This document shows positions 1 through 8,060 of a stretch of DNA of 9,234 bases, piece by piece. Below the pieces are notes generated by a model. It saw only the letters and a program-made list of their open reading frames with translations. It ran no database searches and was not told the DNA's origin. A program made the position numbers and the translations under genes. Origin of the DNA: a virus. Lineage: Duplodnaviria > Heunggongvirae > Uroviricota > Caudoviricetes. The stretch covers positions 1 through 9,234 of the IMG/VR virus record IMGVR_UViG_2534681773_000016, one strand, 5' to 3'. Numbering within the stretch: the first letter of the stretch is position 1; each line of letters starts with the position of its first letter.

Positions 1-1839
1 TATGATGTTGTCAGGGCGGCGTCGCCGTCAGACCTTGCGGAAAAGCTGACACACAAACTGAAAGAGGGCTGGCAGCCATACGGCGGACCGGTTGCCATTA
101 CGCCGTACACACTGATGCAGGCGGTGGCTATTGAAGGAGATCCACAGGTCGGCCCTTCATCTGAGCCGGACTGGTTCTACGTGGTTGTGCTTGCCGGACA
201 GTCCAACGGCATGGCCTACGGTGAAGGGCTTCCGTTACCGGATTCTTACGATGCTCCGGATCCGCGCATTAAACAGCTGGCGCGCCGCAGCACGGTAACT
301 CCGGGTGGAGAGAGTTGTACGTATAACGACATCATCCCGGCTGACCACTGTCTGCATGATGTGCAGGATATGAGTACGCTGAATCATCCGAAGGCAGACC
401 TGAGCAAAGGGCAGTACGGCTGTGTCGGCCAGGGCTTACATATTGCCAAAAAACTGCTCCCGTATATCCCGAATAACGCGGGGATCCTGCTGGTACCATG
501 CTGTCGTGGTGGTTCGGCATTCACCCAGGGCGCGGAGGGGACATTCAGTGCGGACGCGGGGGCCAGCCAGGATTCGGCGCGCTGGGGTGTGGGTAAACCG
601 TTATATCAGGACCTGATTGCGCGCACTAAAGCTGCATTACAGAAGAACCCGAAAAATGTGTTGCTGGCGGTGTGCTGGATGCAGGGAGAGTTTGACATGA
701 GCGCCGCCACCTACGCACAGCAACCTGCGCTGTTTACAGCCATGCTGAAGCAGTTTCGTGCTGACCTCACTGTGTTTAACGCGCAGTGTCATGGTGGCAG
801 TGCTGCAGATGTGCCGTGGATTTGTGGTGACACGACGTATTACTGGAAAAATACATACGCTACCCAGTACGACACCGTGTACGGCGGGTATAAAAACAGG
901 GAGAGTGAGGGCGTTTATTTTGTGCCCTTCATGGCAGACGGTAACGGCGTCAATACCGCCACTAACGCGCCGGCAGAAGATCCGGATATTCCGGCATCAG
1001 GATATTACGGTGCGGCATCGAGAACGAATGGAAACCAGGTATCATCAAACCGCCCGACACATTTCAGTTCATGGGCGCGCAGGAGCATTATTCCGGATCG
1101 TCTGGCAACCGCTATTCTGAACGCAGCCGGGCGCACCTCAGCCTTCATCAGTGGTAAGGCACCGGAAATCAAACCCTCGCCCGGCGGCAACACGCCATCG
1201 GGTCCGTCTGCAGATACGTCCGTTCGCACAATCTCCCTGCTGCCGGCAGCCGGAGAGGCTGCTGCGCAGGGCTGGAGCATTAAGGATGGCGGAATTCAGT
1301 TGTCAGATGGTGTATTTAAGATCACCAAGCAGAGCAATAAAACCTGGTCCCTGACGCATCCGGTGGATGACGCAATTACCCTGCTGACACAGGGCGGCAG
1401 ACTGACCTGTAAGTTCCGCCTGTCAGGCGCACTGACCAACAATCAGTTCGGGCTGGGGATTTATCTGTATACGGATGCTCCCGTTCCTGATGGTGTGGCG
1501 ATGACGGGTACCGGTAATCCGTTCCTGATGTCGTACTTCACTCAGACCACTGACGGCAGAGTGAATCTGATGCATCACAGGAAAGCCGGAAACACGAAGC
1601 TGGGGGAGTTCGGCGATTACGGTAACGACTGGCAGACGCTGGAGCTGGTGTTCACCGCCGGCAGTGCCACGGTTACTCCGAAACTGAATGGAGTGGCTGG
1701 CCCGGCATTCCAGGTTATAAAAGACGGTCTGACACTGGGACTGAATGCGCTGACGCTGACGGATGTTACCAAAAATGCAGCGTATGGCGTTGAGATAGAA
1801 AGTCTGGTGCTGGAGATAAATGCACCGGCATCATCATAA
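1..1839 (+). CDS. nanS-p: Prophage sialate O-acetylesterase, NanS-p-like (DUF1737-like N-terminal segment + SASA/SGNH esterase + C-terminal domain); 5' end lies upstream of the window
   Basis: Frame 1 is open from base 1 to TAA at 1837-1839; the ORF track starts at M115 only because the true start is outside the window. Residues 1-40 (YDVVRAASPSDLAEKLTHKLKEGWQPYGGPVAITPYTLMQ) look like the DUF1737 segment. The GQSNGMAYGEG block at ~aa 66-76 is the SASA-family (GQSN) variant of the SGNH active-site motif. Position immediately upstream of the holin matches NanS-p genes of Stx/lambdoid prophages. Confidence 0.8.
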   Translation, partial: YDVVRAASPSDLAEKLTHKLKEGWQPYGGPVAITPYTLMQAVAIEGDPQVGPSSEPDWFYVVVLAGQSNGMAYGEGLPLPDSYDAPDPRIKQLARRSTVTPGGESCTYNDIIPADHCLHDVQDMSTLNHPKADLSKGQYGCVGQGLHIAKKLLPYIPNNAGILLVPCCRGGSAFTQGAEGTFSADAGASQDSARWGVGKPLYQDLIARTKAALQKNPKNVLLAVCWMQGEFDMSAATYAQQPALFTAMLKQFRADLTVFNAQCHGGSAADVPWICGDTTYYWKNTYATQYDTVYGGYKNRESEGVYFVPFMADGNGVNTATNAPAEDPDIPASGYYGAASRTNGNQVSSNRPTHFSSWARRSIIPDRLATAILNAAGRTSAFISGKAPEIKPSPGGNTPSGPSADTSVRTISLLPAAGEAAAQGWSIKDGGIQLSDGVFKITKQSNKTWSLTHPVDDAITLLTQGGRLTCKFRLSGALTNNQFGLGIYLYTDAPVPDGVAMTGTGNPFLMSYFTQTTDGRVNLMHHRKAGNTKLGEFGDYGNDWQTLELVFTAGSATVTPKLNGVAGPAFQVIKDGLTLGLNALTLTDVTKNAAYGVEIESLVLEINAPASS

Positions 1840-1924
1840 AAAGTGAGCCAGTCAAATGGAAGGTATCGTTAAACTCACCGGTAGTGTCAGTGGGTCGTCT
1901 GAGATGCCTGCATGAGTTATCAGA

Positions 1925-1954
1925 GCCATCAGTACTTAACTGGTGGCTTTTTTT
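1925..1954 (+). terminator. Rho-independent terminator between nanS-p and the holin
   Basis: 8-bp stem 1925-1932 (GCCATCAG) pairing with 1940-1947 (CTGGTGGC), one G-U pair, 7-nt loop, followed by T7 at 1948-1954. Confidence 0.7.
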
Positions 1955-1989
1955 ATTGTTGTCAGCTTCCGGATAACGGGAGACGGGGT

Positions 1990-2205
1990 ATGTACCAGAT
2001 GGAAAAAATCACAACAGGTGTGTCATACACCACGTCAGCGGTGGGAACGGGCTACTGGTTCCTGCAGTTGCTGGACAGGGTTTCCCCGTCTCAGTGGGCG
2101 GCAATAGGCGTGCTGGGGAGTCTGCTGTTTGGGCTGCTGACATATCTGACTAACCTGTATTTCAAAATCAGAGAGGACCGTCGTAAGGCTGCACGGGGAG
2201 AGTAA
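1990..2205 (+). CDS. S: Class II pinholin, phage 21 S21-like, with dual-start motif (Met1 at 1990, Met4 at 1999)
   Basis: 71 aa, [71 protein letters not shown]. Two TMDs and a charged C-terminus, near-identical in pattern to S21 68/71 as I remember it. GGGAGACGGGG SD-like element sits upstream of ATG 1990. The ORF-track start at 1912 is rejected because it precedes the terminator and lacks an RBS. Confidence 0.9.
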
Positions 2206-2209
2206 TTCA

Positions 2210-2524
2210 ATGACTCAAAACTATGAACTGATTGTGAAAGGGATCCGCAATTTTGAGAATAAAGTTACGGTAACTTTAGCGTTACGGGACAAAAAACGCT
2301 TTGACGGTGAAATTTTTGACCTGGACATCTCGCTGGACCGTGTTGAAGGTGCCGCGCTGGAGTTTTATGAGGCAGCAGCCAGAAGGAGCATCAGACAGGT
2401 CTTCCTGGATGTTGCTGCCGGGTTATGTGAAGAGGACGAGCTGTTGCCAGAAACGCGCCCCTGTTCAGAGGCGCGGAATACCATAAAAATTAACAGTTCT
2501 GATAACTCGATTACGTGTTGTTAG
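2210..2524 (+). CDS. Small conserved prophage protein between holin and endolysin (YdfR / DUF1327-like, from memory)
   Basis: 104-aa ORF starting 5 nt after the holin stop, with GGAGAG SD 9 nt upstream. N-terminal half (MTQNYELIVKGIRNFENKVTVTLALRDKKRFDGEIFDLD...) resembles the small ORF found at this position in E. coli Qin-type lysis cassettes. Family assignment is unverified. Confidence 0.65.
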   Translation: MTQNYELIVKGIRNFENKVTVTLALRDKKRFDGEIFDLDISLDRVEGAALEFYEAAARRSIRQVFLDVAAGLCEEDELLPETRPCSEARNTIKINSSDNSITCC

Positions 2525-2579
2525 CTTTTTGCAGTTGGCTTTCCAGTATCTTTCATTGGTAGCATCCTGATAAATATCC

Positions 2580-3113
2580 ATGAGCGCAAAAATCAAATAC
2601 GGCCTGTCAGCTGCTGTTCTGGCGCTGATTGCTGCAGGCGCGTCTGCTCCTCAGATACTTGACCAGTTTCTGGACGAAAAAGAGGGTAACCACACAACGG
2701 CATACCGCGATGGTTCCGGCATCTGGACCATCTGTCGGGGGGCCACGATGGTGGATGGAAAACCCGTTTTTCCCGGTATGAAACTGTCGAAGGAAAAATG
2801 CGACCAGGTCAACGCCATTGAGCGTGATAAGGCGCTGGCATGGGTGGAGAAAAACATCAAAGTGCCATTGAGCGAACCCCAGAAAGCGGGGATCGCGTCA
2901 TTCTGTCCGTACAACATTGGTCCCGGTAAGTGTTTCCCGTCGACGTTTTATAAACGAATTAATGCAGGTGATCGCAGGGGAGCGTGTGAGGCGATTCGCT
3001 GGTGGATTAAGGACGGTGGCAGAGACTGCCGTATTCGTTCAAACAACTGCTACGGTCAGGTATCCCGTCGTGACCAGGAGAGCGCGCTGGCGTGCTGGGG
3101 TATCGACAGATAA
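2580..3113 (+). CDS. R: SAR (signal-anchor-release) endolysin, T4-lysozyme-like (GH24), R21/P1 Lyz type
   Basis: 177 aa. N-terminal Gly/Ala/Ser-rich weakly hydrophobic SAR domain (GLSAAVLALIAAGASA) followed by the catalytic E...D...T spacing (DEKEGNHTTAYRDGSGIWTICRGAT). Pairing with a pinholin is the expected arrangement. Confidence 0.9.
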   Translation: MSAKIKYGLSAAVLALIAAGASAPQILDQFLDEKEGNHTTAYRDGSGIWTICRGATMVDGKPVFPGMKLSKEKCDQVNAIERDKALAWVEKNIKVPLSEPQKAGIASFCPYNIGPGKCFPSTFYKRINAGDRRGACEAIRWWIKDGGRDCRIRSNNCYGQVSRRDQESALACWGIDR

Positions 3114-3207
3114 GCAGAATATTTTGCTGAAAAATAAGGCATGGCCACGCGGGCGGATAACATGAAATCCTGCGAACTGGCGAAACGTAAGTGAATAAAA
3201 GTAAAAA

Positions 3208-3237
3208 CCCCGTTTGTTGGCACCAAGCGGGGGTTTT
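3208..3237 (+). terminator. Terminator-like hairpin in the R-Rz intergenic insertion
   Basis: 9-bp stem 3208-3216 pairing with 3224-3232 (one G-U), 7-nt loop, then T4 at 3234-3237. An A5 run at 3203-3207 upstream means it could act on either strand. The T-tract is short, so strength is moderate. Confidence 0.5.
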
Positions 3238-3273
3238 GTGTTTCCTGACTCCGGAAAAGTCAAAGGAGAAAGT

Positions 3274-3411
3274 GTGTTTGATTTTAGCAAACTGATTCGG
3301 GAGATTCGAGTGATGGCTGAAAAATTATCCACCTGGAAGTTCATTCTTATCTGGCTGGTGTTTGTGATTATGGCCTCCGGTTATTTCATCGGTCAGATAC
3401 GCTGGTGGTGA
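3274..3411 (+). CDS. Small single-TMD membrane protein of unknown function, inserted between endolysin and Rz
   Basis: GTG start at 3274 preceded by AAGGAG (3263-3268) with a 5-nt spacer. 45 aa with one hydrophobic helix ([22 protein letters not shown]). Stop TGA 3409-3411 lies 1 nt before the Rz ATG at 3413, suggesting translational coupling. An alternative start at ATG 3313 would give 32 aa. Confidence 0.55.
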
Positions 3412-3412
3412 A

Positions 3413-3880
3413 ATGAACCGCGTACTGTGCGTGGTCATCATTGCCCTGCTGGTGGCCTGTGGTGCGCTTAGTCTGGGGCTGAATCATTACCGTGATAACG
3501 CCATTACCTACAAAGCCCAGCGCGACAAAAATGTCAGAGAACTGAAGCTGGCGAACGCGGCAATTACTGACATGCAGATGCGTCAGCGTGATGTTGCTGC
3601 GCTCGATGCAAAATACACGAAGGAGTTAGCTGATGCGAAAGCTGAAAATGATGCTCTTCGTCGCAAGCTTGATAATGGTGGCAGGGTGCTCGTCAAAGGA
3701 AAATGCCCTGTGCCATCCTCAGCCGAAACCTCCAGCGCCTCCGGCATGGGCAATGATGCCACCGTCGAACTCTCTCCAGTTGCTGGACGAAACGTTCTCG
3801 GTATCCGGGACGGAATTATCCGCGACCAAACAGCACTGAGAACGCTTCAGGAATACATCAGGACGCAATGCCTTCGATGA
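3413..3880 (+). CDS. Rz: Rz i-spanin (inner-membrane spanin subunit)
   Basis: 155 aa with N-terminal TMD. Central segment [59 protein letters not shown] is essentially lambda Rz as I remember it; both termini differ. Confidence 0.9.
3633..3839 (+). CDS. Rz1: Rz1 o-spanin lipoprotein, embedded in the +1 frame of Rz
   Basis: 68 aa. Signal peptide with lipobox MVAGC, followed by a proline-rich stretch ([17 protein letters not shown]). Lies wholly inside Rz in another frame, the canonical embedded-spanin arrangement. Confidence 0.85.
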
Positions 3881-4054
3881 TAGCGATAATTTTACTCATC
3901 ATCCTTCACATCTGGCTCTGTAGACAGGGTGGTGATCACTTCTGGAGTGAATCCAGATTTAACATCTCATTGCTGATGCTTGATATTGAGCATCTTGCGC
4001 GCGGTAAGGAGCTGCGTTGAGATAAGAGCCAGTCATCACAAACACCAGGATTTA

Positions 4055-4077
4055 GCCTCGCATTCGCGGGGCTTTTT
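4055..4077 (+). terminator. Rho-independent terminator downstream of Rz/Rz1
   Basis: 7-bp stem 4055-4061 (GCCTCGC) pairing with 4066-4072 (GCGGGGC), one G-U, 4-nt loop ATTC, then T5 at 4073-4077. Confidence 0.65.
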
Positions 4078-4098
4078 ATTGCAACAAAGGTAAAGACG

Positions 4099-4386
4099 AT
4101 GGATGAAGAATATCGTAAAGACCTGCAATTGTGGTTTGGCCTGACGCATGCGTCGTTCTGCGTGATGCCGAGAGTATTCATGGAGGCTATGCCGCAAGAA
4201 TGGCAAGAGAAGATGGCGCAGTTGCTTTTTGAGTATGGCGACACGATCAAAACGGATGTCTGCGGAGTTCACAGCTGTTTCGTTACTGCCAAAGACGGCA
4301 ACAACCGCTTTATGAGGATGCCAGAAGATATTCTGAACTATCGTCATCCCCGGCGTGAGTTCATCGAATCATTTCTGAAGAAGTAG
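4099..4386 (+). CDS. Hypothetical protein (moron ORF A), family not recognised
   Basis: 95-aa ORF with ATG start and weak AAGG SD. Codon usage looks enterobacterial (CTG, GCG, CCG). Contains a His/Cys cluster (H17, C21, C65, H68, C70). Sits 21 nt after the terminator. Confidence 0.55.
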   Translation: MDEEYRKDLQLWFGLTHASFCVMPRVFMEAMPQEWQEKMAQLLFEYGDTIKTDVCGVHSCFVTAKDGNNRFMRMPEDILNYRHPRREFIESFLKK

Positions 4387-4479
4387 CCATTACAAAGTCT
4401 ATCTGCGGGGGGCTTGATAAAGGTGCTTTCACCTCGCTTAGCATGGTATGTTCTGACTACCAACTTTTTGGGAGGACAC

Positions 4480-4704
4480 ATGGAACTGATAAATGGACGG
4501 CCAGGCAGAGATTTTATAGTGGGAACATATACCTACTCAGAAATTAAAGATCTTAACTTCATGGCTAAGGAAGAGAAAAGAGCTCGTGAAGAGCTAAAGC
4601 ATCGGGGTTACGAATTGGCGTATATCAAGGCGGACTCTGAATGTAACGGGATGTTTGTCAGGGCGTACCGGGTCTATACTGACAAAGCGCCATCTAATGT
4701 CTAA
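4480..4704 (+). CDS. Hypothetical small protein (moron ORF B), family not recognised
   Basis: 74-aa ORF from ATG 4480 with GGGAGGA SD at 4470-4476. Highly charged (KEEKRAREELKHR). The ORF-track start at 4414 is a TTG without RBS and is rejected. GC about 44% by hand count. Confidence 0.55.
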   Translation: MELINGRPGRDFIVGTYTYSEIKDLNFMAKEEKRAREELKHRGYELAYIKADSECNGMFVRAYRVYTDKAPSNV

Positions 4705-4751
4705 ATATACCTCGGGCGGTTTTTTACGTTCATTACCGTACGCAATTACAG

Positions 4752-4779
4752 CAGGCATTCATTGAGTGCCTGTGATAAT
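4752..4779 (+). promoter_or_regulatory. Candidate extended -10 promoter overlapped by an inverted repeat, upstream of moron ORF C
   Basis: TGtGATAAT at 4771-4779 is an extended -10-like element. Inverted repeat CAGGCA (4752-57) / TGCCTG (4767-72) with a 9-nt spacer overlaps the -35-equivalent region, which is itself poor (GCAGGC). No experimental support. Confidence 0.3.
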
Positions 4780-4839
4780 GATTTATCAACGTGCTTGCAA
4801 ACGGTATTCTAGACCTCCAATTATCCTAAGGAGGTTTTT

Positions 4840-5244
4840 GTGGTTAAAAATTTAGAATACATGAAGGGGATGCTTGAGGTATTTTTGAAAGCGAAAACTC
4901 CCTTTATATCTACAAAAGACTTAGCTAATGCGGGGTACGATATCTGCTCGAATGAAGGGATGTTTCATTATCTACTTCTTATTGAGCAAGGTTATATCAG
5001 TAATAAAGATCTAATAACGGATGACATAACTAAACTGGGCTACATGCGCCATTGTGGCCATATGCTAGATATGGGTACCGACGTGCGACTATCTGCGCAG
5101 GGACAAGAATTCGCCCAGGCATTAAATGAACCTACGGTTTTTGAGAAATTAAAGTCAATGAGCGATGCCCCTTTGAGTACAATCAAAGATGTTGGGCTGG
5201 AGTTAACGAAGGCCTATTTAAAGAAGAAATTTGGCCTCGAGTAA
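4840..5244 (+). CDS. Hypothetical protein (moron ORF C), low GC; possibly a winged-helix-type small protein (DUF2513-like is a guess)
   Basis: 134-aa ORF from GTG 4840, preceded by the strongest SD in the window (AAGGAGG 4828-4834, 5-nt spacer). GC about 40% by hand count over 4801-5280, versus 50% or more in terminase and esterase genes. Confidence 0.6.
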   Translation: MVKNLEYMKGMLEVFLKAKTPFISTKDLANAGYDICSNEGMFHYLLLIEQGYISNKDLITDDITKLGYMRHCGHMLDMGTDVRLSAQGQEFAQALNEPTVFEKLKSMSDAPLSTIKDVGLELTKAYLKKKFGLE

Positions 5245-5304
5245 AATTTCTACCCTCACGAGTTAAGTTGTTTTGTGATGGTTATTCGCAATGAATATCT
5301 CTAG

Positions 5305-5331
5305 CCACTGGCATTTGCTGGTGGTTTTTTT
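5305..5331 (+). terminator. Rho-independent terminator closing the moron cassette, upstream of cos
   Basis: 8-bp stem 5305-5312 (CCACTGGC) pairing with 5317-5324 (GCTGGTGG), two G-U pairs, 4-nt loop, then T7 at 5325-5331. Confidence 0.55.
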
Positions 5332-5456
5332 ATGCGCATCCCTCGCGCACCACAAAGGGAGTCTTTCAGTAGTGATTCTGAATATCAGTGTGATAAACGT
5401 ATTTGACAATCATTATCATTTTTGGTGGGTCCTTTCCGGCGATCCGACAGGTTACG

Positions 5457-5468
5457 GGGCGGCGACCT
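5457..5468. other. cosN: cosN cohesive-end site (12-nt sequence GGGCGGCGACCT), with a lambda-like cosQ-side flank upstream
   Basis: 5424-5502 reads GGTGGGTCCTTTCCGGcGATCCGACAGGTTACG / GGGCGGCGACCT / CGCGGGTTTTCGCTATTTATGAAAATTTTCCGG. From memory this matches the lambda right end plus the first ~46 nt of the lambda left end with one mismatch. It sits ~185 bp upstream of the small terminase gene, as in lambda. Confidence 0.85.
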
Positions 5469-5505
5469 CGCGGGTTTTCGCTATTTATGAAAATTTTCCG
5501 GGATC

Positions 5506-5604
5506 CATGTCCGGTTTCTCTGCAAGTTAACTATATGAAAAATATAAAAACAGGCTGTCCGTGAACCGGACATGTGCAAAAAACGGACATGTAAACCGGA
5601 CATG
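5506..5604. repeat. cosB: cosB-like region: four copies of a 9-mer (CCGGACATG) flanking an AT-rich tract; candidate small-terminase binding sites
   Basis: CATGTCCGG at 5506-5514 (inverted) and CCGGACATG at 5566-5574, aCGGACATG at 5583-5591, CCGGACATG at 5596-5604 (direct). AT-rich tract AAAAATATAAAAA at 5539-5551 lies between them, analogous to the lambda R3-I1-R2-R1 layout but with a different repeat sequence. Additional inverted repeat AACCGG(n6)CCGGTT at 5594-5611. Confidence 0.6.
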
Positions 5605-5651
5605 ACCGGTTTTGTGCTGATTGTGAGGTAAGAGTTTTTGCGAGGTGAGGA

Positions 5652-6161
5652 GTGGCTACGCAGACTGAAGTTGCCAGGCATTTGAGTCTGACCGATCGCC
5701 AGCTTCGCAGATTGCAGAAATTACCGGGTGCCCCGGTCTCGAATAAGCGAGGGCAACTGGATCTGGATGCCTGGCGCGATTTTTACATATCGTATCTGAG
5801 AAGAAGTAAAAACGATGTGCCTGATGGCGATAGCGAAGAAGACTATGAAGAGAAATTGCTTATTGCCAGATGGGAACTGACAGCAGAACAGGCTGTTACA
5901 CAGCAGTTAAAAAATGAGGTGTCAAAAGGAAAACTGATTGACACCGGGTTCTGTATTTTTGCCCTCAGTAAGCTGGCAATGGCGTTATCCAGTACGCTTG
6001 ATTCCATCCCTTTATCCATGCAGCGACAGTTTCCTGATTTAACACCGCGCCATCTTGACCATCTGAAAACCCTTATTGCTAAGGGGGCAAATCAGTGTGC
6101 GCGGGCAGGGGATAAATTACCGGATTTACTTGATGAATATATCAGAGCAACAACTGAATAA
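5652..6161 (+). CDS. Terminase small subunit (lambda gpNu1 family)
   Basis: 169 aa from GTG start with GAGGTGAGGA SD. C-terminal two thirds align to lambda Nu1 from memory (TGFCIFALSKLAMALSSTLDSIPLSMQRQFPDLTPRHLDHLK vs TAFCTFVLSRIAGEIASILDGLPLSVQRRFPELENRHVDFLK). The N-terminal HTH region is divergent. Confidence 0.9.
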   Translation: MATQTEVARHLSLTDRQLRRLQKLPGAPVSNKRGQLDLDAWRDFYISYLRRSKNDVPDGDSEEDYEEKLLIARWELTAEQAVTQQLKNEVSKGKLIDTGFCIFALSKLAMALSSTLDSIPLSMQRQFPDLTPRHLDHLKTLIAKGANQCARAGDKLPDLLDEYIRATTE

Positions 6162-8060
6162 TATGATGAGCGCTGTCACAACTGCATTACAGCCCCTGAT
6201 AAGGGCATTGCCGGTGACGCCAGTTGAATGGGCTGATCAAAATTATTATCTGCCTAAAGAATCTTCATATGGTGAGGGCGAATGGAAAACGCTGCCATTC
6301 CAGATCGCCATCATGAACAGCATGGGGAATGATCAGATCCGCACTGTTAATCTGATTAAATCTGCCCGTGTTGGCTATACAAAGATGTTGCTGGGGGTGG
6401 TCGGGTATTTTATTGAGCATAAATCCCGAAACAGTCTGCTTTTTCAGCCCACGGATTCTGCCGCTGAAGATTTTATGAAGTCTCACGTGGAGGCGACGAT
6501 TCGGAACGTGCCATGCCTGAAAGACCTTTCCCCATGGCTGGGTCGTAAACATCGTGACAATACTCTCACGCTGAAACGCTTTTCATCGGGCGTCGGTTTC
6601 TGGTGCCTGGGCGGCGCTGCCGCCAAAAACTACCGTGAAAAATCCGTGGACGTGGTCTGTTATGACGAGCTTTCCTCGTTCGAACCGGATGTTGAAAAAG
6701 AGGGTTCGCCAACCCTGCTGGGGGATAAACGTATTGAGGGCTCTGTATGGCCAAAATCCATTCGCGGCTCGACGCCTAAAATCAAAGGCTCCTGCCAGAT
6801 CGAAAAAGCCGCTAACGAGTCGGCACACTTCATGCGTTTTTATGTGCCCTGTCCGCACTGTGGGGAGGAGCAGTATCTGAAATTTGGCGATGATGCCTCG
6901 CCTTTCGGTCTTAAGTGGGAGAAGAATAAGCCAGAAAGTGTTTTCTACCTTTGTGAGCATCATGGCTGTGTGATCCATCAGTCTGAGCTTGACCAGAGTA
7001 ACGGGCGGTGGATCTGTGAAAACACGGGCATGTGGACCCGTGACGGCCTGATGTTTTTCAGCGCCCGGGGTGATGAAATTCCGCCGCCGCGCTCCATCAC
7101 TTTCCATATCTGGACGGCGTACAGTCCGTTCACCACCTGGGTACAGATTGTCTATGACTGGCTGGATGCACTGAAAGATCCCAACGGCCTGAAAACCTTT
7201 GTGAACACCACGCTGGGCGAGACCTGGGAAGAGGCCGTGGGCGAAAAACTCGATCACCAGGTGCTGATGGATAAGGTTGTGCGTTACACGGCGGCGGTGC
7301 CTGCCCGGGTGGTTTATCTGACGGCGGGCATTGACTCGCAGCGAAACCGTTTTGAGATGTATGTCTGGGGATGGGCTCCGGGAGAGGAAGCCTTTCTGGT
7401 GGATAAAATCATCATTATGGGGCGTCCCGATGAGGAAGAGACGCTGTTACGTGTGGATGCGGCGATCAACAAAAAATACCGCCATGCAGACGGAACCGAA
7501 ATGACCATTTCCCGTGTCTGCTGGGACATCGGGGGGATCGATGGCGAAATCGTTATCAGAGGTCAAAAAAACACGGTGTTTTCCGGGTGCTGCCGGTAAA
7601 AGGCGCATCTGTCTATGGCAAGCCGGTGATCACCATGCCAAAAACCCGCAATCAGCGGGGCGTGTATCTGTGTGAAGTGGGGACGGACACCGCAAAAGAA
7701 ATTCTCTATGCCCGTATGAAAGCCGATCCCACGCCTGTGGATGAAGCCACGTCGTATGCCATCCGTTTTCCTGATGATCCGGAGATTTTTTCGCAGACAG
7801 AGGCGCAGCAACTGGTCGCGGAAGAGCTTGTGGAGAAGTGGGAAAAAGGAAAGATGCGTCTGCTGTGGGATAACAAAAAGCGGCGTAACGAAGCGCTGGA
7901 CTGCCTGGTGTATGCCTACGCGGCATTACGTGTGTCCGTGCAACGCTGGCAGCTTGATCTGGCTGTACTGGCAAAATCCCGGGAAGAAGAGACGACCCGG
8001 CCAACCCTGAAAGAACTGGCAGCGAAGCTGTCCGGAGGAGTGAATGGTTACAGTCGCTGA
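6133..8060 (+). pseudogene. Terminase large subunit (lambda gpA family) interrupted by a 1-nt frameshift (frame 1 to frame 3) near 7555-7572
   Basis: Frame 1 from ATG 6133 (MNISEQQ..., overlapping the Nu1 end as in lambda) carries Walker A KSARVGYTK and aligns to gpA up to ...CWDIGGIDGEIVI, then hits TAA at 7597-7599. Homology continues in frame 3 (RSKKHGVFRVLPVKGASVYGKPV ... to TGA 8058-8060). Combined length is about 642 aa versus 641 for lambda gpA. The true start is ATG 6133, not the ORF-track start at 6076. Confidence 0.75.

Follow-up and report, generated by a model that had tools for sequence, protein, structure and literature searches.

The window analysed here (the whole 9,234-nt stretch) contains a lambda-like prophage segment in which three small ORFs, A, B and C, occupy the interval from the lysis genes to the DNA-packaging site (Table 1). 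The first-pass annotation had described these ORFs at the same positions and lengths, had bracketed them with intrinsic terminators and had placed them at the lysis-cos junction, and each of these points was confirmed, as both terminators gave folding energies below those of shuffled sequences and cosN was located to the right of t2.

Table 1. Coordinates and properties of the features between Rz and Nu1.
Feature	Position	Strand	Properties
Rz i-spanin	3413..3880	+	Pfam Phage_lysis, E = 1e-31; left conserved flank of hotspot
Rz1	3633-3839		Embedded within Rz
50-aa hydrophobic ORF	3868..4020	+	Overlaps the end of Rz; phrog_11822, E = 2e-36
Intrinsic terminator t1	4054..4078	+	AGCCTCGC-ATTC-GCGGGGCT then TTTTT; stem 4054-4073, then T-run; dG -15.2, z -3.8
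ORF A, 95 aa	4099..4386	+	Weak SD, no own promoter; stand-alone copy of a widespread phage domain
5′ region of B module	4387..4479	+	Conserved; DNA homology with L011 and L016 begins at 4385-4388
ORF B, 74 aa	4480..4704	+	Soluble protein; phrog_6100 end to end, E = 1e-55
Decayed B-module terminator	4710..4725	+	CCTCGGGCGG then TTTTTT
Portable junction element, ~40 bp	4744..4782	+	Hairpin 4751-4773 plus TGTGATAATG; 5′ edge of C module
Candidate extended -10 of ORF C	4771..4779	+	TG-t-GATAAT, read from sequence; no recognisable -35
Palindrome, candidate operator	4773..4788	+	TGATAATGATTTATCA (TGATAAT-GA-TTTATCA); overlaps the -10
SD-sequestering hairpin (predicted)	4811..4837	+	AGACCUCC (4811-4818) pairs with GGAGGUUU (4830-4837)
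ORF C, 134 aa	4840..5244	+	GTG start; divergent DUF2513-type winged-helix protein, phrog_585
Intrinsic terminator t2	5303..5333	+	Stem 5303-5326 plus T-run; 3′ edge of C module; dG -17.2, z -2.6
cosN cohesive-end sequence	5457..5468	.	GGGCGGCGACCT; right conserved flank
cosB repeats	~5497-5612		CGGACATG-type; near cosN
Nu1 small terminase	5652..6161	+	Pfam Phage_Nu1, E = 1.5e-18

The low GC content claimed for the three genes (40-44%) fits B (43.6%) and C (40.0%), but A lies outside that range at 47.9%, and flanks above 50% are found on one side only (Rz 53.2%, Nu1 46.7%). All three ORFs are under purifying selection when compared with diverged homologs (omega 0.12 for A, 0.04-0.19 for B and 0.14 for C). 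Two antisense ORFs, at 3936-4250 and 4036-4347, were dismissed on account of a codon-position signal on the sense strand of A. The 50-aa ORF at the end of Rz travels with Rz and t1, is called by PGAP and reaches a maximum KD19 hydropathy of 2.07; substitutions were too few for dN/dS, and we list it as a putative gene. A generic promoter scan found 6 promoter-like sites against 4.2 expected, which is the chance level, and comparison of the full window with Rfam returned nothing at E ≤ 1.

The three proteins had been called unrecognised. This stands for Pfam, NCBIfam and PADLOC but not for PHROG, where A, B and C belong to families 3527, 6100 and 585, all of unknown function, nor for ORF C, which is also a remote homolog of DUF2513. 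No known defence, toxin-antitoxin or RNA family was matched by any of them: PADLOC-DB 2.0 returned 0 families at E ≤ 1, and Pfam and NCBIfam returned no known toxin, antitoxin or defence family, so the defence, toxin-antitoxin or exclusion role suggested earlier found no support in these searches. Profiles of A, B, C and their wider families produced only chance-level matches in a PDB sequence search.

Products and signals of ORFs A and B

ORF A corresponds to the C-terminal domain of phrog_3527, phrog_33008 and phrog_10794, matching their C-terminal ~90 profile positions (E = 5e-56); all three are annotated as 'unknown function', and the AF2 model of the protein is poor (pLDDT 57). Because the match covers just positions 139-230 of the 233-position phrog_3527, we considered a truncated remnant, but most homologs are stand-alone proteins of 94-105 aa and the longer members (243-344 aa) merely add variable N-terminal extensions, in which Pfam has no family, so this reading was rejected. 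The family is also found in other phage groups and hosts (Sashavirus, Carvajevirus, and phages of Vibrio, Pseudomonas and Stenotrophomonas), where its genes often lie in early or replication regions.

The SD of ORF A is weak (-3.9 kcal/mol), its ATG lies 21 bp after the T-run of t1, too close to leave space for a promoter, and only a degenerate hairpin follows the gene. Lacking a promoter at this distance from t1, ORF A would be made only when Q-antiterminated late transcription passes the terminator. The occurrence of the family outside lambdoid phages and in early or replication regions suggests that A serves the phage and has no lysogenic-conversion function. The earlier view of A as cargo expressed in the lysogen thus does not agree with the space left for a promoter or with the distribution of its family.

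ORF B matches its PHROG family, likewise annotated as 'unknown function', over its full length, and its SD (-10.2 kcal/mol) is the second strongest of 14 starts. Differences from homologs fall at third codon positions in 31/54, 20/36 and 33/48 cases. PGAP leaves the gene unannotated in RefSeq E. coli, with 'None' under the match in 36 genomes. We regard ORF B as a genuine gene under selection, which RefSeq leaves out in O104:H4 strains and other E. coli.

The region 5′ of B contains a degenerate hairpin at ~4396-4415, which is intact in one of the compared loci (L016), a candidate extended -10 (TGgTATGTT, 4444-4452) that is weak and conserved as TGgTA(T/A)(G/T)(T/G)T in the alignment, and the SD GGGAGG at 4470-4475; an indel in L011 indicates that this region is non-coding. 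Downstream of the gene, L016 carries an intact terminator hairpin, GCCGCCTCCGGGCGG then TTTTTT, whereas the fold in the window is no better than shuffles (z -0.07), and homology of the B module stops at 4726. ORF B would be a small cytoplasmic protein, and with its terminator decayed here its transcripts probably run on into C.

ORF C and its control signals

The SD of ORF C, AAGGAGGT, had been singled out as the strongest, and at -12.7 kcal/mol it does rank first among the 14 starts tested. Folding of the leader (4745-4845) gives -32.1 kcal/mol (z -3.9), and the predicted hairpin that pairs with the SD would lower translation; across five closely related sequences its pairing survives substitutions, but these are all C-to-U changes on one side of a pair, and compensatory double changes are absent. 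The extended -10 and the overlapping inverted repeat proposed earlier are both present, and they recur at five other loci, where the -10 is kept as TGtAATAAT or TGcGATAAT; the generic scan gave this site no score. The palindrome is identical in L028-L031 and has one substitution in L019. The window holds no second copy of the 16-nt palindrome within 3 mismatches. A second operator near cos was considered, as 4773-4783 and 5408-5418 match each other in inverted orientation over 11 nt, and was rejected, since about one match of this kind is expected by chance in AT-rich DNA of 1.9 kb. A Fur box at the promoter was rejected because the 19-bp Fur box GATAATGATAATCATTATC is unmatched within 3 mismatches anywhere in the window.

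The junction element that carries the -10 is present in 50 of the 153 fetched loci and also precedes other cargo: it lies 5′ of a DUF6694 gene in L011, L012 and L015, and follows ORF A in L034 and L076, from which C is absent. As no gene obviously follows it in the latter two, the hairpin and -10 may be a recombination joint or a terminator instead of a promoter. At the other end, t2 is conserved together with gene C in L019 and L028-L030, and homology stops directly after it. From leader to terminator, the C module is kept as a block even where the lysis and terminase genes of the backbone are unrelated. With a promoter and an operator as candidates, it is a clean portable promoter-operator-gene-terminator module that is easily testable.

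ORF C itself gives no Pfam hit to DUF2513 (PF10711) even at E ≤ 1 and lies below the gathering threshold, and 4 of 12 close relatives hit it weakly (best E = 0.005). A profile search collected 218 relatives, of which 40/49 and 18/20 hit PF10711, one of them with 32.6 bits against a cut-off of 29.6, and hhalign of the ORF C family against DUF2513 gave a full-length profile-profile match of 99.9% (E = 5e-35, 130 columns). DUF2513 and the related YjcQ (PF09639), which are winged-helix families found in phages and prophages, share with ORF C the fold with its C-terminal helices and the motifs FH..LL (in helix 3) and RL(T/S)..G.(E/D)F. These profile and model comparisons make ORF C a remote homolog of DUF2513 with a confidently predicted winged-helix fold, for which 'DUF2513-like winged-helix protein' is a suitable annotation. 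The DUF2513 family consistently fills the post-lysis slot of enterobacterial prophages. A literature search on DUF2513/PF10711 and on the PHROG families of the three ORFs returned nothing relevant, and DUF2513 is without a characterised member.

The fold is that seen in MarR-type regulators. However, MarR-family Pfam models hit neither ORF C nor its relatives, and MarR, PadR, HxlR and TubR show 9-18% identity and Foldseek E values of 0.02 or worse, with no membership at the sequence level; differences in the packing of the flanking helices keep TM-scores low (0.3-0.46). A viral fold library gave nothing below E = 0.02, with uninformative names. The protein is mildly acidic (pI 5.9).

ORF C would be a classical moron, with transcription starting from its own extended -10 and ending at t2. 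The fold and the palindrome suggest that the product binds DNA, probably as a dimer, and regulates itself, in which case it would act on the palindrome across the -10 to repress its own promoter. A further step, in which this autoregulated DUF2513 winged-helix repressor is made by the resident prophage and binds operators in heteroimmune phages or host promoters, is a tentative proposal to which we give a low probability. Targets in heteroimmune phages, if true, would make C a single-gene immunity or exclusion function, and targets among host promoters would mean lysogenic reprogramming, including in O104:H4 strains; either would be the first function for DUF2513, a family common in enterobacterial prophages.

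Distribution of the three genes and alternative readings

The view of the junction as a variable cargo site is well supported by the relatives, which keep the Rz flank and the cos flank and have differing genes or none inside. Homology of the Rz flank with L003 and L005 extends to 4082, placing the left module boundary at 4082|4083, and homology of the cos flank with L005 spans 5404-5501. An ST131 prophage (L003) has the segments 3482-4082 and 4387-5501 in common with the window, and thus B and C without A; phage HF4s (L004) shares 3845-4420 and only A; phage Kati (L005) shares the flanks alone. From such comparisons, the modules extend over ~4083-4386 (A), 4385-4726 (B) and 4744-5333 (C).

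While the flanks are matched in 4,770 of 5,426 E. coli genomes, A is found in 72 and B in 36, and these 36 also contain C. The complete set of three is present in 26, O104:H4 strains included; A occurs without B and C in 46 and B and C without A in 10. Of 80 viral loci, 69 have A but neither B nor C, and each of the three genes is found without the other two in related phages. Dispensability is seen within E. coli as well, as strain CT282 has an IS100 insertion at the SD of C and strain 2017C-4173W12 has a frameshift in A. The presence/absence comparison that had been proposed therefore bears out the variable site and contradicts a three-gene cassette, as A, B and C assort independently. The suggested division into A and B versus C is not the one found: at short range A separates from B+C (A | B+C), and among more diverged loci all three separate (A | B | C).

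One alternative is a two-gene unit of B and C, for instance a small effector or toxin paired with a winged-helix regulator or antitoxin, with A as a bystander. Each of the 36 E. coli genomes that has either gene has both side by side, and so do 22 of the 38 loci that the C and B surveys added; the decayed B terminator makes co-transcription probable, and a small protein beside a DNA-binding protein resembles toxin-antitoxin and regulator-effector pairs. All linked copies are, however, at least 99.4% identical, from which the perfect linkage within E. coli appears to be a single recent haplotype and no repeated co-selection. Diverged homologs were never adjacent among the loci compared: every diverged B (9 loci; 82-83% identity in L011-L017, 68-69% in L151 and L152) is without C, and every diverged C (more than 20 loci at 47-96% identity: L010, L018-L020, L024-L031 and L128-L140, with L128 at 96%) is without B. 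Together with the promoter-like element of C, the intact B terminator in L016, a 135-bp spacer with no overlap or coupling, the absence of a match to any toxin-antitoxin or defence family and the tolerated IS100 insertion between the two genes, this makes a B-C unit unlikely.

A lytic role for ORF C, as a DNA-binding accessory for cos/pac packaging or a late regulator instead of a lysogen-expressed moron, would agree with the position of its family, always on the late-operon strand and always between lysis genes and terminase, near the packaging site. Small terminases such as Nu1 also use winged-helix domains. But the family sits beside at least four unrelated packaging modules (Nu1/GpA, DUF1441/GpA, Terminase_2, Terminase_4 with HNH, ParB-like protein), C is present in 36 genomes against the thousands that match the same Rz and cos flanks and so is absent from most, and it has its own promoter-like element and terminator; we consider this role improbable.

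It is quite improbable that a single gene, most plausibly C or B, is an undescribed prophage-expressed defence or superinfection-exclusion determinant. The moron anatomy of C would suit it, and prophage cargo at variable sites is often defensive or exclusionary, as in BstA and the P22 ant moron with sieA (PMC8585504, PMC2629481), but there is no homology to any PADLOC 2.0 model, and C has a DNA-binding fold only, with no effector domain. One anti-phage defence, exclusion or toxin-antitoxin cassette made of A, B and C, although consistent with a known cargo site, bracketing terminators, GC below the flanks and the 26 genomes with all three, is extremely improbable and, as far as sequence comparison goes, already largely refuted by the distribution, given the separate breakpoints of each module, the genomes with A or with B and C alone, the A family in phages of other groups and hosts, replication regions included, and the empty PADLOC, Pfam and NCBIfam searches.

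Taken together, the Rz/Rz1-cos interval is probably a recombination hotspot for accessory genes, which here holds three unrelated, independently moving single-gene modules and no multi-gene system. What looks like an operon-like cassette dissolves into three separately assorting genes when diverged homologs are compared; the interval is ordinary phage mosaicism, in which only C would be a textbook self-contained moron.

Comparison with known morons

Set against the definition of morons in lambdoid phages (PMC2629481), the interval shows presence/absence between otherwise homologous phages, with flanks shared and content differing in L003, L004 and L005. An own terminator is found for C (t2); that of B is intact in L016 and decayed here, and A has only its degenerate hairpin. 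As for an own promoter, C has the conserved TGnGATAAT without a -35, B the weak conserved -10 and A none.

The regulators Mnt and Arc of the P22 immI 'ant moron' act on promoters within the moron (PMC2629481). Like ORF C, for which DNA binding is predicted, they are small DNA-binding proteins encoded in a variable insertion inside the late operon; however, they have no homology to ORF C, and they control an antirepressor, a target gene of a kind that does not lie beside ORF C. Mnt and Arc are ribbon-helix-helix proteins.

Lambda bor occupies the same Rz-cos position, and its presence likewise varies among otherwise homologous phages. It is encoded on the opposite strand and specifies a lipoprotein, whereas A, B and C all lie on the late strand and encode what appear to be soluble cytoplasmic proteins. 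ORF C has, with its candidate promoter, the same promoter-gene-terminator anatomy as the lambdoid morons and a GC content below its flanks (40% vs 53%), and among the three genes the full anatomy is found in C only.

Coding status of the three ORFs and their flanks

The gene order is that of a lambdoid prophage late region (see table), and ORFs A, B and C were confirmed at the positions first assigned to them between Rz and cosN. Among 5,426 complete E. coli genomes, 26 have a near-identical copy of 3800-5700, including many O104:H4 strains plus UPEC69, and the exact A, B and C protein sequences are common in public data, where they are invariably named "hypothetical protein". Both bracketing terminators are genuine, with a stem at 4054-4073 plus T-run for t1 (-15.2 kcal/mol, z -3.8) and a stem at 5303-5326 plus T-run for t2 (-17.2 kcal/mol, z -2.6). 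The low GC content described in the first-pass annotation holds for B (43.6%) and C (40.0%) but not for A (47.9%), giving a stepwise fall and no uniform block; likewise, Rz is richer in GC (53.2%), but Nu1 reaches only 46.7%.

Features of the lysis-cos junction and its flanks
Feature	Position	Remark
SASA/DUF6645 esterase	115-1839	first in gene order, followed by a class II holin
DUF1327/YdfR protein	2210-2524	
Lysozyme	2580-3113	
Rz with embedded Rz1	3413-3880	before ORFs A, B and C
Terminator t1	4054-4078	
ORF A	4099-4386	95 aa, plus strand
TGgTATGTT	4444-4452	candidate extended -10 of B
ORF B	4480-4704	74 aa, plus strand
10-bp hairpin	4751-4773	kept in C leader
Extended -10, TGnGATAAT (here TGtGATAAT)	4771-4779	kept in C leader; candidate promoter
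Palindrome TGATAATGATTTATCA	4773-4788	kept in C leader
Hairpin AGACCUCC x SD GGAGGUUU	4811-4818 x 4830-4837	kept in C leader
ORF C	4840-5244	134 aa, GTG start, plus strand
Terminator t2	5303-5333	
cosN	5457-5468	after ORF C, followed by cosB repeats
Nu1	5652-6161	followed by large terminase, head-tail joining protein and portal

A, B and C are real genes. Against diverged homologs, omega was 0.12 for ORF A, 0.14 for ORF C, and 0.11, 0.19 and 0.04 for ORF B, with third-position differences of 31/54, 20/36 and 33/48. This signal is important for ORF B because PGAP annotates nothing under the match in any of the 36 RefSeq E. coli genomes with the gene. An indel in the conserved DNA 5′ of the B ATG in L011 (here and below, L numbers are prophage or phage loci fetched for comparison) places the start at 4480 and rules out the TTG at 4414.

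Pfam, NCBIfam and PADLOC gave no significant match for the A, B or C proteins, leaving the defense or toxin-antitoxin system implied earlier without support. In these databases the proteins are indeed unrecognized, but PHROG families exist for all three (A, 3527; B, 6100; C, 585), each of "unknown function".

Several features were observed in the flanks. The esterase has 574 aa here versus 617-618 aa in E. coli homologs, with DNA identity of only 86-89% to L001 (816-2672) and L002 (365-2218), in whose genomes iraM lies upstream of it. The lysozyme-Rz gap (3214-3411) holds small ORFs, PGAP calls three tiny hypothetical proteins there in L001 and L002, and a short membrane-like peptide terminates 1 nt ahead of the Rz start. 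A PGAP-annotated 50-aa hydrophobic ORF (phrog_11822, 3868-4020) overlaps the Rz end; lambdoid and P22-like phages retain it along with Rz and t1, and it is putatively coding, with too few substitutions to judge. The large terminase gene (6133-8060) carries a 1-nt deletion at a non-homopolymer site near 7554 (AATCGT-TATC versus AATCGTCTATC in L001 and L002), which shifts frame 1 to frame 3 and splits the gene, one ORF closing at 7599 and the next opening at 7587 (window 7530-7620), and reflects either a packaging-defective prophage or a sequencing error. The O104:H4 and ST131 prophages, whose small terminase differs, cease to align at about 5497-5503, between cosN and the cosB repeats, and in L036, L125 and L150 the lysis genes and all three ORFs are ~100% identical but Nu1 only 47% and the large terminase 67%, indicating a mosaic joint between cosN and cosB/Nu1.

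Assortment of A, B and C

The junction had been proposed as a cargo hotspot, and this was borne out by pairwise DNA comparisons with sharp breakpoints, in which the flanks are common and the content differs. The ST131 prophage (L003) aligns at 3482-4082 and 4387-5501 and carries B and C, with 227 bp of other filler in the place of ORF A; the P22-like phage HF4s (L004) aligns at 3845-4420 and carries A alone; and phage Kati (L005), whose cargo differs and is encoded on the opposite strand, aligns at 3476-4082 and 5404-5501, in the flanks only.

When the 5,426 E. coli genomes were searched for each gene separately, 72 had A and 36 had B; these 36 were also the ones with C, always adjacent to B. 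This perfect linkage resembles a system but vanishes among diverged homologs; all 36 B-C copies are at least 99.4% identical and therefore represent one young haplotype. At 82-83% protein identity (L011-L017), B keeps its post-lysis position and C is never next to it, the neighbors being a 65-aa ORF and a DUF6694 gene or a minus-strand DUF6953/DUF2158 pair, and B at 68-69% (L151, L152) likewise lacks C. Conversely, none of the diverged C homologs has B: 96% (L128), 87% (L129), 82% (Klebsiella L019 and L020), 66% (Pectobacterium L018) and 47-55% (L010, L024, L026, L130-L140). Neither B nor C was present in 69 of the 80 viral loci with A.

DNA homology to diverged loci sets the unit limits at 4385/4388-4726 for B and 4744/4745-5333 for C. 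As the units are delimited and assort separately, we conclude that A, B and C are three single-gene modules placed end to end and not the three-gene cassette first described. The suggestion of two acquisitions was right in spirit, but the split is A, B and C rather than A plus B against C.

ORFs A and B

The A family comprises ~45 clusters, mostly of 94-105-aa proteins, found throughout Enterobacterales, with a conserved core ([KED]DLxxWFGLS...PR[VS]xMxxMP.EWQ...NYRHP). By tblastn it is present in 27 sequenced phages, including Sashavirus, Carvajevirus, Vibrio, Pseudomonas, Stenotrophomonas and Acinetobacter phages. In Vibrio phages Seahorse and ValSw3-3 the gene immediately precedes the small terminase, and in a Stenotrophomonas phage it immediately precedes DNA polymerase. 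Pseudomonas phages Psp6 and Jeremy encode longer proteins in their replication regions (344 and 243 aa), with A as the C-terminal domain. Neither Pfam nor the PDB yielded a relative, not even to a diversified profile, and the AF2 model of ORF A is unreliable (pLDDT 57). In E. coli 2017C-4173W12 (L034, 3010-3296), the ORF A homolog (83% DNA identity) bears a frameshift and is annotated as a pseudogene.

ORF A has a weak SD (AAAGG, -3.9 kcal/mol) and starts 21 bp past the t1 T-run, which leaves no room for a promoter. Across lambdoid and P22-like prophages, Rz, the 50-aa ORF and t1 stand ahead of the gene in nearly every case. We therefore read A as a late-transcript passenger that would ride the Q-antiterminated transcript and serve the phage, not lysogenic conversion.

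ORF B encodes a soluble protein (pI 7.8) without a hydrophobic segment. Only five B clusters were recovered from 5.8 billion proteins, and tblastn of 50,697 phage records gave no match. Its module includes ~92 bp of conserved upstream DNA and a good SD; the terminator hairpin and T-run are intact in L016, and the 5′ arm is lost in the window. A 60-aa chimeric relative, P0062, joins an unrelated N-terminus (MNPAIKTAINIVGSQKKLGAACEVSQQAVY…) to the final ~30 B residues, suggesting that some element has undergone recombination within B.

The ORF C module and the edge elements

The C module forms one conserved block across at least six backbones with unrelated lysis genes (class II holin and lysozyme, holin_3 and lysozyme, holin_8 and GH19) and packaging genes (Nu1/GpA, DUF1441/GpA, Terminase_2, Terminase_4 with HNH), its homology beginning abruptly ~95 bp 5′ of the GTG and ending just past t2. 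The extended -10 and overlapping palindrome noted in the first-pass annotation are both present, and the C SD is, as claimed, the strongest among 14 starts compared (-12.7 kcal/mol). The predicted fold of the 101-nt leader has a free energy of -32.1 kcal/mol (z -3.9); across five sequences its pairs show only one-sided G-C to G-U changes and no compensatory double changes, making the RNA structure plausible, not proven. A Fur box suggested by GATAATGAT failed the Fur-box test.

An exhaustive profile search found 218 relatives of ORF C. ORF C itself falls short of the Pfam DUF2513 model, which is matched by 40/49 sampled relatives and 18/20 of the most distant ones, and hhalign of the close family against distant relatives gave 99.9% probability (E = 5e-35, 130 columns). 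By these profiles, ORF C appears best described as a divergent member of the DUF2513 superfamily, a family of which we found no mention in the searched literature. C may be a dimeric winged-helix protein, expressed from its own promoter, that would repress this promoter via the palindrome overlapping the -10, with translation possibly further damped by SD sequestration. In CT282 (L035, NZ_CP095798), IS100 (istA/istB, 1613-3414) lies between B and C at the C ribosome-binding site (window ~4839), and PGAP then calls a 124-aa C shortened at the N-terminus; C is therefore dispensable for the host.

Taken together, the first observation was largely right, and the A-B-C region is ordinary lambdoid mosaicism, containing a late gene, probably a passenger, from a phage family of wide distribution (A), a small orphan-like gene (B) and a clean putative moron that encodes a DUF2513-type winged-helix protein (C). 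The residual interest lies in the target of ORF C and in ORF B, left unannotated.

The module edges fall at terminator-like hairpins of similar sequence (…GCGGG..GGCTTTTTATTGC). A 40-bp element (hairpin and TGTGATAATG) heads different cargo: C in most loci and, in L011, L012 and L015, a DUF6694 gene. In L034 and L076, where C is absent, it comes directly after A. The ~40-bp hairpin and extended -10 are >90% identical at window 4744-4782, L011 4587-4620, L034 3343-3364 and L076 3837-3858, and the element may act as a portable promoter and insulator or mark a recombination joint. Such recurrent edge elements fit the classical view of morons (defined in PMC2629481) as promoter/terminator-bounded units shuffled at short conserved joints.
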